Of a stretch of DNA of 64,000 bases, positions 23,475 to 30,418 are shown piece after piece (the first letter of the stretch is position 1; each line of letters opens with the position of its first letter). Below the pieces are notes generated by a model. That model made no database searches, was not told the origin of the DNA, and saw only the letters and a program-made list of their open reading frames with translations. Origin of the DNA: Escherichia phage vB_EcoM_KAW1E185; the sequence record NC_054922.1; one strand, 5' to 3'. A program made the position numbers and the translations under genes.

Positions 23475-23504
23475 ATTATAACACAACACGAGGGACTTGT
23501 AAAC
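23475..23504 (-). promoter_or_regulatory. T4-type early promoter
   Basis: Minus strand GTTTAC, 17-nt spacer aagtccctcgtgttgtg, TTATAAT. Confidence 0.6.
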
Positions 23505-25564
23505 TACATCTTAAACTTTTTAGACATTCCGTCGATGTTAACCAAAGAAGCTAAGATTTGAGAAACTTCGTTTTCCTCTTCTTTTGATTCTTCTACAAGG
23601 AATTGATTAAATCCAGTCATTGGACGAACTTCACCAGTTTCCATCAGATGGTCGCCATCATATACCGATTCTTCTAATTGTTCAGAAGGAGGAACGATTG
23701 TGCCTTCGATTAAATACTTGTTATAAGCAGTTTCTTTCATCATGTACGTGCTCACTTTATTAATCTTCAGCAAAATTCCACGCGGTAGAATAACTTCAGC
23801 TTCTGTTGCTATTCCGAGACTTCCTGGATATACAACATTAACTTTATGAGCTCCATCAATTGCCCATCCTATTTGAACTTTAACGTATTCAGGATTTTCT
23901 TTATACGCTCTTATTTCGTTTGGATTAATAGTTATTCCTTCTTCATTTTTATCAACCGTTAATTCGTTACGAGCTTCTGGTTCTAAAAGACCAATACCAG
24001 CATGTGTAATTCCAAAACGCCCAAAAATGATAGGAGTTAAAGAAGTAGATACAAAATTTCTGAAATAGAACACTTTATTTTTAACTAGCGCTTCGTATAT
24101 AGGAGCAGTCATACTTTGAGCACGATAAACTGTAATGCCTTCCGGTATGCGGTCACCATTTTCAAAAGCTGAATCTAAATTATTTATAGCAGATTCAATT
24201 TCTTTTTCACTCATTACATCATATCGTTCTGGATTGTAACGACCTAAAAGAAGATTATTGATGTCAGTATATCCTGAACCACAATACTCTCTAATGCCGC
24301 GCTTTTGTGATGGAGTATATTTAGAACCATCACGGGCAATAGTAATATCAATCATTGGACCTGCACCAATTCCAGAAAAACTATAAATCATTCTTTTGAG
24401 GAATTTAGTTTTTGCTGCGTTCCAGGAATTTTTAGTCATTTCTTCCCAGACTTCATCTGGCTGCCCTTTACGAGTTTTATTATGTTTATCAAGCCAATTA
24501 TCTTTATATTCTTCAAAGAGTTGATTAACAGCTGCTGCGTATTTCTCTAAACATTTTATTGAAGTAGTTGGTTCATTTTTAATCGCATTAAGAATTACAT
24601 CTTTAATTTTTTCAGAAACTTCATTAACCTCACTTTTTGAAAAGAATTTATAGTCATAATGAAGTTCATTCGCAGTTCCTTCGGCAATAATTTTTGCTGC
24701 CTTAGTTTTAGAAGCTAATGAATTAATTCCAAGCTTCATTTCTTCTGCTTCGGGAATTAAAGGAGCGGTAGCAGGTTTATTGAAATTAGCTGCGGTAGAT
24801 TCATACTTCTGGAATAATTCACTTTCAAATCTAGAAGATTCCAATGATTGACTTTGCGCAATTGCTCTACGGGAAATTTTAACTTTAACGATTACAGCTT
24901 GGTCAGAACGTTTATCATTTTCTTGTGCAATAGATGCTGCAATTGCCTCATTTTTAGTTACTTGAGCTCCAGTATCTTTATTGATATAAACATCGCCGAC
25001 TTTCGATTCAACTTTAGTAAAGAGCTCGGTACTAATTTCCGGAACTCCTGGAATGTCTTCTAGTGATACATTTTTGCGATGTATAAGAATATATGCATAC
25101 TTTTTATCATAATCCCAGAGTTCCTTAAGAAGGACGTATCTGCCACCTGAACGACTACGGATAAGTCTATCAGCAATAACTTGAATTTGTCGAGCTTGAC
25201 CAGCGGTTTTAGACTTAAGAATACGAAGCATACAAGCATCAATTTTATACTGACGCATTGTTTGCATTGCAACAGTAAAAACTGAATTGATATAATTAAT
25301 TGGGCTTGGACCGAGACCTTTTAATTTAGCAATTGAACCTTTGGCAGTTAATGTAAAAGGAACAATATGCATCATTTTATCGCCCATCTTTAAATCGCGA
25401 TTAGTATCACCTCCAGATGTATAGGTGCATAAACGAAAGCCTGGTTGTTCAATTGCATCATCAACACGAACTGAAAAAATTTGTGGTATTTTCTTCTTTG
25501 GATTTAAGTTTGTAATCGGAAGAGTAGTATCTTCGTCAAATAATTCTGTAATGAGTTCCATCAT
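23504..25564 (-). CDS. alt: Alt ADP-ribosyltransferase (packaged, modifies host RNA polymerase)
   Basis: 686 aa vs T4 Alt about 682; MMELITELFDEDTTLPITNL matches recalled Alt; true start may be the second Met. Confidence 0.9.
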   Translation of the reverse strand: MMELITELFDEDTTLPITNLNPKKKIPQIFSVRVDDAIEQPGFRLCTYTSGGDTNRDLKMGDKMMHIVPFTLTAKGSIAKLKGLGPSPINYINSVFTVAMQTMRQYKIDACMLRILKSKTAGQARQIQVIADRLIRSRSGGRYVLLKELWDYDKKYAYILIHRKNVSLEDIPGVPEISTELFTKVESKVGDVYINKDTGAQVTKNEAIAASIAQENDKRSDQAVIVKVKISRRAIAQSQSLESSRFESELFQKYESTAANFNKPATAPLIPEAEEMKLGINSLASKTKAAKIIAEGTANELHYDYKFFSKSEVNEVSEKIKDVILNAIKNEPTTSIKCLEKYAAAVNQLFEEYKDNWLDKHNKTRKGQPDEVWEEMTKNSWNAAKTKFLKRMIYSFSGIGAGPMIDITIARDGSKYTPSQKRGIREYCGSGYTDINNLLLGRYNPERYDVMSEKEIESAINNLDSAFENGDRIPEGITVYRAQSMTAPIYEALVKNKVFYFRNFVSTSLTPIIFGRFGITHAGIGLLEPEARNELTVDKNEEGITINPNEIRAYKENPEYVKVQIGWAIDGAHKVNVVYPGSLGIATEAEVILPRGILLKINKVSTYMMKETAYNKYLIEGTIVPPSEQLEESVYDGDHLMETGEVRPMTGFNQFLVEESKEEENEVSQILASLVNIDGMSKKFKM

Positions 25565-25613: not shown

Positions 25614-25802
25614 TTAATAATCTATTGGTAAGAGAGTACGATATATTTCAAACTTTGGACCTTTTTCATAGGCATCAAATGTTTCTGTGAATTTATTATA
25701 AGCATATGCATCTATAAATTCAATCATAATTTGTGATACAGAAGTAGAAACATCTCCACCTTCTTTTTGAGCAACGACAATTGTTTCTAAGTAAGCTTTC
25801 AT
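25614..25802 (-). CDS. hypothetical protein between gene 30 and alt
   Basis: 62 aa ORF, start overlaps gene 30 stop. Confidence 0.5.
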   Translation of the reverse strand: MKAYLETIVVAQKEGGDVSTSVSQIMIEFIDAYAYNKFTETFDAYEKGPKFEIYRTLLPIDY

Positions 25803-27262
25803 AGACCAGTTACCTCATGAAAATCACCAAATACATCCTCGAATGTATTAGCTTTAGTTTTATCTTCACGTAAACGAATCGCAATCGGAAGAAATAATTT
25901 AACGTAATCAGTGCGGCCATCAGATTTTAGCCAACCGTTGCATTCGCACTCTAGAATTTTTCCAATATAATAATTTTGGTTTTCCATAATGCGAGTACGG
26001 TCAAGTTCATGTGATTTTACACCGGCTTTATCTTTTAAGCCTGAACCAGCATTTACTTTAATTTTTCCACACTCTGATTCAAGAATAAATCCACCTGCTT
26101 TAGTAGGGTCTTTACGGTGAGGATAAATTCCTACAATTTTTAAATCAACATCAATTACTTCTTTAAATTTATAGAGATTTTTTGAACGAGCATTTTCCCA
26201 CAATCCATCGGTATTTTTGAGAATAATACCTTCAAGACCTTGGTCAATATACTTTTTATAAATTACCTTAGCTTCATCTAGGTTATTTACTACCTGGTTT
26301 TCAATTAAAATTACTTTATCATATCCTGATGTCATTTGTTCTAGTTTAGAAAAACGTACATCATATTTTAAACGAAACGCCGGAAGACCGTATATTTCTA
26401 CCAACGGAACATAATCCCAGACCTGAAACTTCATGCATTGAGCTTCTTTTTCTGAAATAGTTCCCTTTAAAGATTTATTAGCGATTCCATTAGAAGCAGT
26501 ACGAGATTCCGCTACTTCGGCGAATTCTTTAGCTTTACTAATTTCAGGATAATCATCAAAAAGAAAATCTAGGCCTTCTGGTTCCTTTTTAACTTGCTCA
26601 TGGTATACCAATTCGCCATCAATTAACACACCTTCTGGATGAATCTGGCGGGCTTCAGCAGTCATTTTGATTAATTCTTCCTTAAGAAGATCTAATCCTA
26701 GATATTCATTACCAGCTCGTGATAAAAGACGAACATCATCTAATTCATCGCCTCGGACTTCAGCAAAACACCTGGCTCCATCTGCTTTTAACTGTGCAAA
26801 GGCTGGAAATTTGATATTCTTACTAATGCCCTTTTCATCATAAGAACTTGCCAGCATTTGAGGTTGTTCAGGAATTAAACCTGGCCAAACTTTGTTTGCA
26901 ATAGATACTGAAGCACCGCATTCAAGGTCTCGCATCATCACTCGACGCAAAACTTCAACATCATCCTTTTTACCATCGGTGATATATCCAGTCAATTCCT
27001 CAATTGCAGCATTTCCGGTCAATTTCCGAGTAGCTAACGTGAATTCAATGAAGTCAAGCATATCGGTAATGGTCAGCATTCCAAAACTCTGGGTAGCAAT
27101 ACCAGGTTTAGGCCATTTCTTGATATAATACTGTAACCCACGAGAATAAGTTAGACGATATACTCGTTTAAGCAATTCATTATCTTTATTCTTTTCAAGA
27201 ATTGCTTGCTTCTGCTTAGTTGATCCAATAGATGCTATTTCATTCAGAATTTTAAGAATCAT
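25799..27262 (-). CDS. 30: ATP-dependent DNA ligase gp30
   Basis: 487 aa, T4 ligase length; KADGAR adenylation motif; MILKILNEIASIGSTKQKQAIL matches recalled gp30. Confidence 0.95.
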   Translation of the reverse strand: MILKILNEIASIGSTKQKQAILEKNKDNELLKRVYRLTYSRGLQYYIKKWPKPGIATQSFGMLTITDMLDFIEFTLATRKLTGNAAIEELTGYITDGKKDDVEVLRRVMMRDLECGASVSIANKVWPGLIPEQPQMLASSYDEKGISKNIKFPAFAQLKADGARCFAEVRGDELDDVRLLSRAGNEYLGLDLLKEELIKMTAEARQIHPEGVLIDGELVYHEQVKKEPEGLDFLFDDYPEISKAKEFAEVAESRTASNGIANKSLKGTISEKEAQCMKFQVWDYVPLVEIYGLPAFRLKYDVRFSKLEQMTSGYDKVILIENQVVNNLDEAKVIYKKYIDQGLEGIILKNTDGLWENARSKNLYKFKEVIDVDLKIVGIYPHRKDPTKAGGFILESECGKIKVNAGSGLKDKAGVKSHELDRTRIMENQNYYIGKILECECNGWLKSDGRTDYVKLFLPIAIRLREDKTKANTFEDVFGDFHEVTGL

Positions 27263-27528
27263 TGTTCATCCTTCAGAGTTTGATTTACAGCTCTATTATA
27301 AATCAATTCATCATTAAGCTCAGTCAAAGACCTATGATATGTAGTTCTAACTTTATTTCCTTGCATCCAGTGCTTGACGTAAATGAAACCTTGCTCTACA
27401 CATTTTTTAAAAATTCGTTCGTCTTTTTGAGCTCGGAATTCTGGATTGCATCTAAAAAATTGATTTACGTGACCGTAATCACGTGTAGTATTACCTTCAT
27501 TTTCATAAATAGTGTGAACGACAAACAT
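27259..27528 (-). CDS. hypothetical protein (T4 30.1-like)
   Basis: 89 aa ORF; by position. Confidence 0.55.
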   Translation of the reverse strand: MFVVHTIYENEGNTTRDYGHVNQFFRCNPEFRAQKDERIFKKCVEQGFIYVKHWMQGNKVRTTYHRSLTELNDELIYNRAVNQTLKDEQ

Positions 27529-28367
27529 TAGAATGCTCCTTGGAAAATATTATCACCACTAGTAGGTCTATTATACAAATACTCTATGCCACCAGGTTTA
27601 ATATAGTTCCATGTCTGAAACGGATGTGTCTGATATGGATGATATAGATGATTATAAGGATTAAATCCAGGAGTTCTCCAGGTAGTATTCCAACGAAAAG
27701 AATCGTTTTTAATCATCTTTTCAATTGCATCTTTTATAGCTTTTTCACTATCAAAACTTTCTTTATTTTCCTTCGGTGAAAAAAGCTTATTTTCTACATC
27801 ATTCCATGTATAAACTCGCTGTGCAGTTTTTGGAATACTGTCACGCTCTCCTCGAGCCATCCAATAAACAGGAACATTTAATATTTCACTCGCGTGATCG
27901 CAGTGGTGAGCGAGATCGTCAATATAACAAATTACGTTATATTTTTCTTTTGCCTTTTTGAACAGCTCTTCTTTTGAAGAATCATGACCACACATCATTA
28001 CTTCTGAGAAGGCACCAGGAAAAAGAGCATTCAAATTAAATTGACGATTCAGCAGAGCGTCAATAGAATCACCCAATGCTGTAACAGCTACAAAATTATA
28101 ATCTTCTTTTAATTTGTTAATTACACACAGAGCATCTTTATATGGAGACAAGTAACGAATAAAATCTGAACGATTGTATTTTTCAATTAACTTGACACCA
28201 AGTTCTTCATCACAATTAAAGAGTTTACCTGGAGAAATAAATTTCTCATCCTGGATCATTTTTAAAATATGTTCTAACGGAAGATTATATTTCTGAGCAA
28301 AATAAGGAAGGCCTGATTGCCAGCTTAAACATACTCCATCAATATCAGTTAAAATAGTAGGCTTCAT
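27528..28367 (-). CDS. HAD-like hydrolase candidate (T4 30.2-like)
   Basis: 279 aa; N-terminal DIDGV resembles HAD motif I. Confidence 0.6.
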   Translation of the reverse strand: MKPTILTDIDGVCLSWQSGLPYFAQKYNLPLEHILKMIQDEKFISPGKLFNCDEELGVKLIEKYNRSDFIRYLSPYKDALCVINKLKEDYNFVAVTALGDSIDALLNRQFNLNALFPGAFSEVMMCGHDSSKEELFKKAKEKYNVICYIDDLAHHCDHASEILNVPVYWMARGERDSIPKTAQRVYTWNDVENKLFSPKENKESFDSEKAIKDAIEKMIKNDSFRWNTTWRTPGFNPYNHLYHPYQTHPFQTWNYIKPGGIEYLYNRPTSGDNIFQGAF

Positions 28368-28828
28368 AGAGAGTCTCTTAATAGGTTTAACACATCAATA
28401 AATTCAGCTTCGGTTAGTATTGTATCATCTTTTGTTAGACCACTAGCCATGCTGTGCTTCAAAACTTTTCCTTTCGAGGCTTGTAATGCATCGCGAAAGC
28501 CCTTGTTTTGGATCGCTGCTTCAAAATATGCATTTGTGTATAATTCTTTCCACGCTGGAGAGTATCTTGAAAACGGAACTCCAAGCCAGAAGAGGGTCCC
28601 ACGGTCCTGAGCTCTAGCATAAGCTCGTCCAGCTTGTTGGGCGGCAAGCCCGGATAACCCAAATATACGTCTTTGATGTTCAACATTTTTCACCTTACAC
28701 CCTTGGAGGAATCCTTCGAGACCTCCAAATTGGATACCATCCATAACAAAAGGCCATTGGGCGAAATTACTTAATGCGCATGATGGCCATCTAAAATTGC
28801 TTCTTATCTCTAGCTCAGACATTTTCAA
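28364..28828 (-). CDS. NADAR/DUF1768-family protein candidate (T4 30.3-like)
   Basis: 154 aa; resemblance to YbiA/NADAR from memory, unverified. Confidence 0.55.
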   Translation of the reverse strand: MKMSELEIRSNFRWPSCALSNFAQWPFVMDGIQFGGLEGFLQGCKVKNVEHQRRIFGLSGLAAQQAGRAYARAQDRGTLFWLGVPFSRYSPAWKELYTNAYFEAAIQNKGFRDALQASKGKVLKHSMASGLTKDDTILTEAEFIDVLNLLRDSL

Positions 28829-29021
28829 TACTTATAATTTCAACATCAGCCCAATGACCATAGCAAGGAAGACGAAATTCAACTGGCCAGTTAGGGTCCT
28901 TTTCTAATATAATAGACTCAACTTGTGGTTCTTCGTGTTCATCAGTATATGGATTTTTATCTGTTACTTTATATGTGACCTTAATGTACTGAATTCCAAA
29001 AATCTTATTAATTATATTCAT
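28815..29021 (-). CDS. hypothetical protein
   Basis: 68 aa ORF in 30.x cluster. Confidence 0.5.
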   Translation of the reverse strand: MNIINKIFGIQYIKVTYKVTDKNPYTDEHEEPQVESIILEKDPNWPVEFRLPCYGHWADVEIISIENV

Positions 29022-29908: not shown

Positions 29909-29984
29909 TTTTATTCTCCGAGATGTTTAATTGCGGTACAGGTATATAATATCATATCCTGTACCAAAGTAAACAATTATTTTA

Positions 29985-30308
29985 CTACTTTCCAGTGCTG
30001 CATGTCAAGTTTACCAACTTTTTCATCTTCTCAATTAAGCGTTCGGCACGTTGGCGAGCTGTAACATAATACCATTCACCTAATTCATTTTGTTCAATTT
30101 TTCCAACGATTACTGTATTCAATTCATAAATCCAACCAGTAAAGAAATTATGAACTTGAATTGTAAAGGTGAAATCTGTTCCCATACCTTCTGTTGTTTC
30201 TACTTCAATAATATCACCTTCAACTGCCATTAAGAACCACATAGTTTCATCATATTTACCATTGAAGCATTTAGTTTTAACTGCAGCGTTCAGATTAATC
30301 GTTTTCAT
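29985..30308 (-). CDS. hypothetical protein
   Basis: 107 aa ORF with AGGAG RBS and early promoter upstream. Confidence 0.6.
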   Translation of the reverse strand: MKTINLNAAVKTKCFNGKYDETMWFLMAVEGDIIEVETTEGMGTDFTFTIQVHNFFTGWIYELNTVIVGKIEQNELGEWYYVTARQRAERLIEKMKKLVNLTCSTGK

Positions 30309-30384: not shown

Positions 30385-30414
30385 AAAATAAAAAAGGACT
30401 CCCGAAGGAGTCCT
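30385..30414 (-). terminator. rho-independent terminator
   Basis: Minus strand hairpin AGGACTCCTTCGGGAGTCCT followed by TTTTTTATTTT. Confidence 0.7.
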
Positions 30415-30418
30415 CAAC

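Follow-up and report, generated by a model that had tools for sequence, protein, structure and literature searches.

The best described relative of the locus analysed here is gene 30.3 of phage T4. Johannesman et al. 2025 mapped the resistance of T-even phages to DarTG1 to this gene, renamed it adfN and identified the T4 protein as a guanine-ADP-ribose DNA glycohydrolase that neutralises DarTG1 (PMC11825919). Purified AdfN strips ADP-ribose from DarT1-modified DNA in vitro, the substitutions E36A and K43A weaken it, and the frameshift allele of RB69, whose product is 15 residues shorter and misses the C-terminal helix, is defective (PMC11825919). AdfN(T4) rescues neither the toxicity of DarT1 in uninfected cells nor T5 or Bas25, and the authors propose that it needs another T-even protein (PMC11825919). 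In an independent T4 transposon screen (HIDEN-SEQ), as far as the rows of its data set considered here go, insertions in 30.3 were lost only under DarTG1 (log2FC -7.25, q=0). The NADAR antitoxins of the DarG1/BC4488 type (8bat) and YbiA (2b3w) have in common with gp30.3 the NADAR fold and a conserved catalytic Glu/Lys pair, which contacts ADP-ribose in this superfamily; DarG1 detoxifies DarT1 in uninfected cells, whereas AdfN(T4) does not. Schuller et al. 2023 report that the third residue, diagnostic of the subfamily, is His in phage NADARs, as opposed to Glu in YbiA and Asp in DarG1, and propose that an N-terminal extension serves as the ssDNA-binding groove of DarT1-associated NADARs (PMC11543638).

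For the adjacent gene 30.2, our literature search found neither biochemical data nor a citable function, and the closest described enzymes are the 5'(3')-deoxyribonucleotidases of NT5C (cdN 2jao/2i7d, mdN 1mh9, S. epidermidis 3bwv; PF06941), which gave both the best profile match and the best Foldseek match. The 3'-phosphatase domain of T4 Pnkp (HAD, 1ltq/5uj0) shares with gp30.2 its superfamily, a DxDG[TV] nucleophile motif and the genome.

The window, by which we mean the whole stretch of 64,000 nucleotides analysed from Escherichia phage vB_EcoM_KAW1E185 (NC_054922.1), is a Tequatrovirus (T4-like) genome: a megablast search with positions 27200-28900 returned 695 phage records, nearly all of them Tequatrovirus, the best at 97.6% identity. 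Its ORF list gives, on the minus strand, alt (686 aa), alt.1, the gene 30 ligase (487 aa), ORFs of 89, 279 and 154 aa, and small ORFs, beyond which lie a GroES-like gene and a dCMP deaminase. The T4 reference annotation has the same order, namely alt, alt.1, 30, 30.1, 30.2, 30.3 (with the internal 30.3') and then 30.4 onward. The virion-packaged ADP-ribosyltransferase gene alt occupies 23504..25564 (PF03496, E=6.9e-35; T4 annotation), gene 30 for the ATP-dependent DNA ligase 25799..27262 (PF01068, E=3.5e-32; T4 annotation), gene 30.1 for an 89-aa DUF3045 protein 27259..27528 (PF11243, E=2.9e-64; 925 phage records), and gene 30.4, a 68-aa ORF known from the ORF list and the T4 annotation, 28815..29021, all on the minus strand.

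The 279-aa and 154-aa ORFs, on which an earlier sequence-only reading had commented, were both found on the minus strand at the coordinates it gave. That reading placed them downstream of gene 30. They do lie at higher plus-strand coordinates, yet transcription reaches them before gene 30, and they are thus upstream of it; the order is 30.4 > 30.3 > 30.2 > 30.1 > 30 > alt.1 > alt. Stop and start codons overlap at every junction from 30.4 through gene 30 (ATGTCTGA, ATGA, TAATG and ATGA), the stop of 30.3 overlapping the start of 30.2 as ATGA and the stop of 30.2 that of 30.1 as TAATG; the genes therefore form a single, tightly packed early gene string. Since tblastn found homologs of 30.2 in 1,438 phage records and of 30.3 in 1,509, both are conserved genes, and chance does not account for either ORF. 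Scanning the region for promoters and terminators gave site counts no higher than in shuffled sequence. Within that background we observed, on the minus strand, a strong terminator-like hairpin (9 bp, 5 GC, T-run; 30394-30415) and then a near-consensus sigma-70 promoter (TTGACA-18-TAAAAT, 11/12 matches; 29979-30008) upstream of the 30.7-to-30 gene string.

Gene 30.3 of the window (28364..28822, minus strand) is adfN by homology and would encode a 152-aa NADAR-fold DNA ADP-ribosylglycohydrolase active against DarTG1. Its product is 98% identical to T4 gp30.3 across all 152 residues and differs from it by Q49H, S67A and I126M alone (T4 to window), none of which falls on a reported catalytic residue. 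The residues E36 (28715-28717), K43 (28694-28696) and the phage-type His123 (28454-28456), all encoded on the minus strand, are present and invariant across the family alignment. The protein is full length, with the same C-terminus (NLLRDSL) as T4 and an intact C-terminal helix, and it is thus like T4 AdfN in genomic position, length, E36, K43 and the helix that RB69 is without.

The length of 154 aa given for this ORF in the sequence-only reading holds when counted from a TTG at 28828, but the start annotated in T4 is the ATG at 28822, two codons after the TTG, which yields 152 aa. Alignment to T4 begins at residue 3 of the longer version, most close relatives measure 150-153 aa, and E36 and K43 bear their published numbers when counting begins at the ATG at 28822. 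The two extra codons TTG AAA (28823..28828, minus strand), included by a mechanical ORF call, probably do not belong to the translated gp30.3. Upstream, the last 8 nt of 30.4 overlap the adfN start. Inside adfN lies the out-of-frame 75-aa ORF 30.3' (28459..28686, minus strand), present in the ORF list and entered in the T4 annotation as a product of internal translation; its reading frame, as judged by translation, is open in the window as it is in T4.

At the profile level, gp30.3 matched Pfam PF08010 (Phage_30_3) at E=1.3e-69 and did not match PF08719 (NADAR) at E<=1. The latter family was reached only via relatives: 20 of 45 diverse PF08010 proteins also matched PF08719 (best E=2.8e-7), and a PDB search with the gp30.3 family profile picked up YbiA of E. 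coli at E=0.0046. Profile searching returned more than 4,100 clusters, some from large cellular contigs, with several members carrying both PF08010 and PF08719, and among 1.84 billion representatives, searched exhaustively, there were 1,450 gp30.3-type clusters at E<=0.001, many with several domains. As far as these profiles tell, the gp30.3 family is a sister of PF08719 and not a direct member of it. The AlphaFold (AF2) model of gp30.3 (pLDDT 96.7, pTM 0.91) is predicted to have the alpha-helical core flanked by small beta sheets that characterises the YbiA-like fold. In a Foldseek search of the PDB its only matches at probability 1.00 were three solved NADARs, namely YbiA (2b3w) and the G. 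lovleyi NADAR (DarG1, 8bat), at query TM 0.56-0.68, and the P. nicotianae NADAR (8bau). The tentative assignment to NADAR made from the letters alone is therefore upheld by PF08010, by the PF08719 matches among relatives and by the predicted structure.

Judged by its sequence, gp30.3 of the window is AdfN, an already-published anti-defence enzyme, and the guess of a counter-defence function was right for this gene, given what has been published on its T4 ortholog (PMC11825919). From the near-identity to T4, the conserved catalytic residues and the full length, we infer that the window copy removes DarT1-ADP-ribose and confers resistance to DarTG1. The host DarT1 toxin would put ADP-ribose on guanine in the phage DNA; AdfN would then hydrolyse the N-glycosidic bond between ADP-ribose and the DNA guanine, as has been shown for the T4 protein, and with the ADP-ribose removed replication could proceed in DarTG1-carrying hosts. 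What sets gp30.3 apart from DarG1 and YbiA is its own Pfam family (PF08010) and a His in place of the Glu of YbiA or the Asp of DarG1; it counts 152 aa against the 219 aa of DarG1 (8bat) and has no adjacent DarT toxin gene. Because it is so much shorter than DarG1, it presumably lacks most of the N-terminal extension proposed for ssDNA binding, and the missing extension might be tied to the dependence of AdfN(T4) on T-even infection for full activity. The GC content of adfN (42.7%, 28364-28822) stands beside 33.6% in the adjacent 30.2 and 36.2% in the whole window; it would fit horizontal transfer of the gene from a bacterial NADAR, and in the published view, too, the gene was acquired horizontally.

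Gene 30.2 (whole ORF, 279 aa, 27528-28367, minus strand) encodes a protein 97% identical to T4 gp30.2. Since single-sequence scans against Pfam, NCBIfam and PADLOC gave nothing significant, family alignments and structure prediction were needed. In PHROGs the protein is phrog_420, listed as 'unknown function' with weak matches to HAD-containing families, and a homolog search returned solely T4-like phage or metagenome proteins. Pfam thus has nothing significant for the protein alone, but its relatives do match HAD families: among 99 members scanned, 22 matched Hydrolase, 18 NT5C and 10 HAD_2, with every other family at four or fewer. In the alignment of 99 representatives, D8, D10, W16, S18, Y64, S67, L73, D78, N84, R108, N111, L112, F116, P117, F120, K132 and R172 are invariant, while conservation is 90% or more at G11, T96, D150 and D151, with Ser for T96 in a few members.

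The predicted structure of gp30.2 has pLDDT >90 over residues 1-200, falling to 39-54 past residue 220, and its modelled core is a Rossmann-like alpha/beta fold with the standard HAD strand order. The DIDGV near the N-terminus that had first suggested a HAD motif is indeed present (residues 8-12, 28332-28346, minus strand), and the model places it as motif I (D8-x-D10-G-V, here D8-I-D10-G-V12), directly after strand 4-7. Motif II is T96 (28080-28082), which ends strand 91-96 and aligns to T102 of 2jao; motif III, assigned by topology, is K132 (27972-27974), located at the N-terminal end of helix 133-142; and strand 145-150, which follows this helix, ends in motif IV, D150-D151 (27915-27920), all on the minus strand. 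Because the strand ends at D8, T96 and D150/D151, together with K132, match the standard placement of motifs I-IV, we read gp30.2 as a HAD phosphatase. On its conserved residues and predicted fold it is a divergent member of the superfamily, as the sequence-only reading had guessed. Residues 1-200 (27768..28367, minus strand) make up the putative phosphatase core, in which a helical insertion of ~55 residues after motif I (~residues 16-72) is modelled as a C1-type cap; residues 201-279 plus stop (27528..27767, minus strand) form a variable tail predicted to be disordered. The HAD assignment is not new, since some GenBank records already label a gp30.2-type protein HAD-like hydrolase or putative phosphatase; the T4 RefSeq record has 'hypothetical protein'. 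Motif conservation and fold suggest that gp30.2 would act as a Mg2+-dependent phosphomonoesterase by the standard HAD mechanism, with Asp8 forming the aspartyl-phosphate intermediate, Asp10 as general acid/base, Thr96 and Lys132 holding the phosphate and Asp150/Asp151 binding the metal.

As to its substrate, the sole near-significant match of the gp30.2 family profile in the PDB was cdN (E=0.045-0.11), and a deeper profile of 99 sequences brought no better cdN match (E=0.11 vs 0.045). The window protein itself did not match PF06941 and reached no Pfam threshold, and among its 99 relatives the best PF06941 match had E=1.2e-4, with 18 at E<=0.1. Because the family-profile match is not significant, we class gp30.2 as NT5C-like and not as a member of NT5C. 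Both have the HAD core and a motif IV of the DD type, and the cap modelled in gp30.2 is helical and of the C1 type, as in NT5C. Across the first 100 residues the two align collinearly, with the nucleophile, motif II and three aromatics of the cap all matched: D8 falls on the nucleophile mutated in 2jao (D12N), D10 on D14, T96 on T102, and W16/F43/Y64 on F20/F46/Y67. Aromatics of the F20/F46/Y67 type presumably line the nucleobase pocket in cdN and mdN, a role for which our literature search yielded no citable source. At 14-21%, however, identity is low; gp30.2 has in addition a predicted disordered tail of 80 residues that carries a conserved motif of its own, and its family, unlike NT5C, appears confined to T4-like phages. 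The helical cap inserted after motif I argues for a small-molecule substrate and against a macromolecule. Because the closest profile relatives are 5'(3')-deoxyribonucleotidases and the aligned aromatics are conserved, a nucleoside or deoxynucleoside monophosphate would be the most likely one.

The tail (residues 201-279, 27531-27767) is rich in aromatics, Pro and Asn, and family members range in length from <180 to >340 aa. Close to its end, ~15-20 residues before the C-terminus, 14 of the 99 cluster representatives carry a motif G[IV]E[YF][LW] (G-[TG]-G-I-E-Y-L-x-x-Q-P-T), which in the window reads GGIEYLYNRPT (residues 259-269) and which may be a docking peptide. These features bear on a wider reading of the protein, which we think unlikely, namely that a HAD phosphatase family specific to Straboviridae begins with gp30.2 and has a substrate of its own, and that the GIEYLxxQPT tail of gp30.2 docks a phage or host partner. 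The invariance of the non-catalytic residues W16, S18, Y64, S67, D78, N84, R108, N111, F116, P117, F120 and R172 argues for one specific, conserved substrate, and 30.2 is kept in >1,400 phage genomes though it is dispensable in the laboratory. The substrate of such a family could be a nucleotide-derived metabolite or an immune signal, relevant in hosts or conditions yet unscreened.

The main rival makes gp30.2 a 3'-phosphatase that heals nucleic-acid ends in the manner of the Pnkp HAD domain of T4 and so readies nicks for the ligase encoded next to it. We consider it improbable. Gene order in T4-like core regions is generally conserved, so that the adjacency of 30.2 to the ligase gene is weak evidence. 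Pnkp, which works on the ends of nucleic acids, has no cap, whereas the ~55-residue helical cap follows motif I in gp30.2; Burroughs et al. 2006 reportedly described capped members of the HAD superfamily as taking small substrates and the macromolecule-acting ones, such as Pnkp, as capless. In structural comparison Pnkp aligns to gp30.2 over only 125-129 residues, as against 161-164 for capped HADs, while the hhalign comparison of the 30.2 family with Pnkp, in which just 24 residues about motif I aligned (probability 12.6%), is uninformative. T4, moreover, already has Pnkp. We retain for gp30.2 the NT5C-like reading, with a (d)NMP as the probable substrate.

Separately, we observed in one metagenomic protein (P0014, contig L006 234-1142) a 30.2-type HAD core, with DIDDV for DIDGV, fused in frame to a 30.1-like DUF3045; this could be a real fusion or the result of a lost stop codon. 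As Rosetta-stone evidence for a link between 30.2 and 30.1 it is weak, coming from a single contig of 1,378 nt, and the link is further weakened by Karamvirus CkP1, where the ORF between 30.2 and the ligase gene is no 30.1 homolog.

The proposal that AdfN needs another T-even protein raises the question of whether its neighbours supply it. If gp30.2 were that factor in vivo, the two genes would form a translationally coupled, two-component anti-DarTG1 module, in which, for example, the gp30.2 phosphatase processes the released ADP-ribose or recruits AdfN. The failure of AdfN(T4) in uninfected cells, T5 and Bas25 speaks for such a module, as do the ATGA overlap of the 30.3 stop with the 30.2 start and the presence of both genes in about 1,400-1,500 Straboviridae records, but we give it very little credence. 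In the DarTG1 screen of T4, within the rows considered, 30.2 insertions were neutral (log2FC -0.12, p=0.61, 71 sites) where 30.3 insertions were lost, and those in 30.1 (log2FC -0.01) and alt (-0.01) were neutral too. In Karamvirus CkP1 gene 30.3 lies among tRNA genes, 58 kb from 30.2; the latter keeps its place directly upstream of the ligase gene in Karamvirus, as it does in Cinqassovirus and Lazarusvirus. Supplying adfN alone is enough to rescue RB69, whose own allele is defective, but this tells us no more than that any partner is already there in RB69. A cofactor role of 30.2 is largely refuted by these transposon data and the broken synteny. The published T4 transposon data also have 30.2 as non-essential, with insertions tolerated at 72/72 TA sites, and as neutral in M9 vs LB (log2FC -0.10); gp30.2 is dispensable in the laboratory and has no part in DarTG1 evasion.

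On the other side of adfN, 30.4 was depleted under DarTG1 (log2FC -1.79, q=0.014) and, besides adfN, was the sole significantly depleted gene among the screen rows examined; the paper does not discuss it. We rejected 30.4 as a conserved AdfN partner: its last 8 nt run into the adfN start, its occurrence is restricted to 718 records of the Tequatrovirus type, and it is absent beside 30.3 in CkP1 and Aeh1, where the ORFs upstream of 30.3 showed no similarity to it. Its depletion is most likely a polar effect on adfN, and it may alternatively have a Tequatrovirus-specific helper role.

That 30.2 and 30.3 are separate in Karamvirus and that 30.2 is neutral under DarTG1 means that they are not a functional pair. 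We read them as independent early accessory genes that are neighbours through inherited gene order and not through joint work. The sequence-only reading had also remarked that both genes sit near alt; the DarTG1 screen data and synteny gave no link to alt. That gp30.3 instead acts on protein ADP-ribosylation of the Alt/ModA/ModB type or on soluble ADP-ribose derivatives, hence its place near alt, is suggested by the short distance (only 30.2, 30.1, 30 and alt.1 intervene) and by the comparative-genomics report that T4-like NADARs are expressed early with ARTs, with soluble ADP-ribose derivatives favoured as substrates (PMC9503650), but is highly improbable as a substitute for DNA given the direct biochemical and genetic evidence for removal of guanine-ADP-ribose from DNA and for DarTG1 counter-defence, the neutrality of alt insertions under DarTG1 in the screen rows considered, and the Karamvirus 30.3, which sits far from alt. 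A second substrate, additional to DNA, may nevertheless exist. In Lazarusvirus (Acinetobacter phage Lazarus, L004 1-373), the cd/31/30.3/30.2/30 block adjoins a gene for a nudE-like ADP-ribose pyrophosphatase, another ADP-ribose-handling enzyme within the same early region.

Collectively, we hold it very likely that 30.3 is adfN, that 30.2 encodes a HAD phosphatase probably acting on a (d)NMP, and that the two genes work independently. For the field this adds little that is new, as the genes are known and correctly annotated and AdfN, the product of the NADAR gene, has been published. For gp30.2, the HAD assignment is firmer here than in the T4 RefSeq record and adds a candidate enzyme to the uncharacterised gene set of T4, and gp30.2 can be struck from the candidates for the T-even factor required by AdfN in vivo. 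The phage in the window appears to carry an intact, presumably active anti-DarTG1 allele, and the presence of such an adfN allele may help to predict host range against DarTG1-carrying strains.
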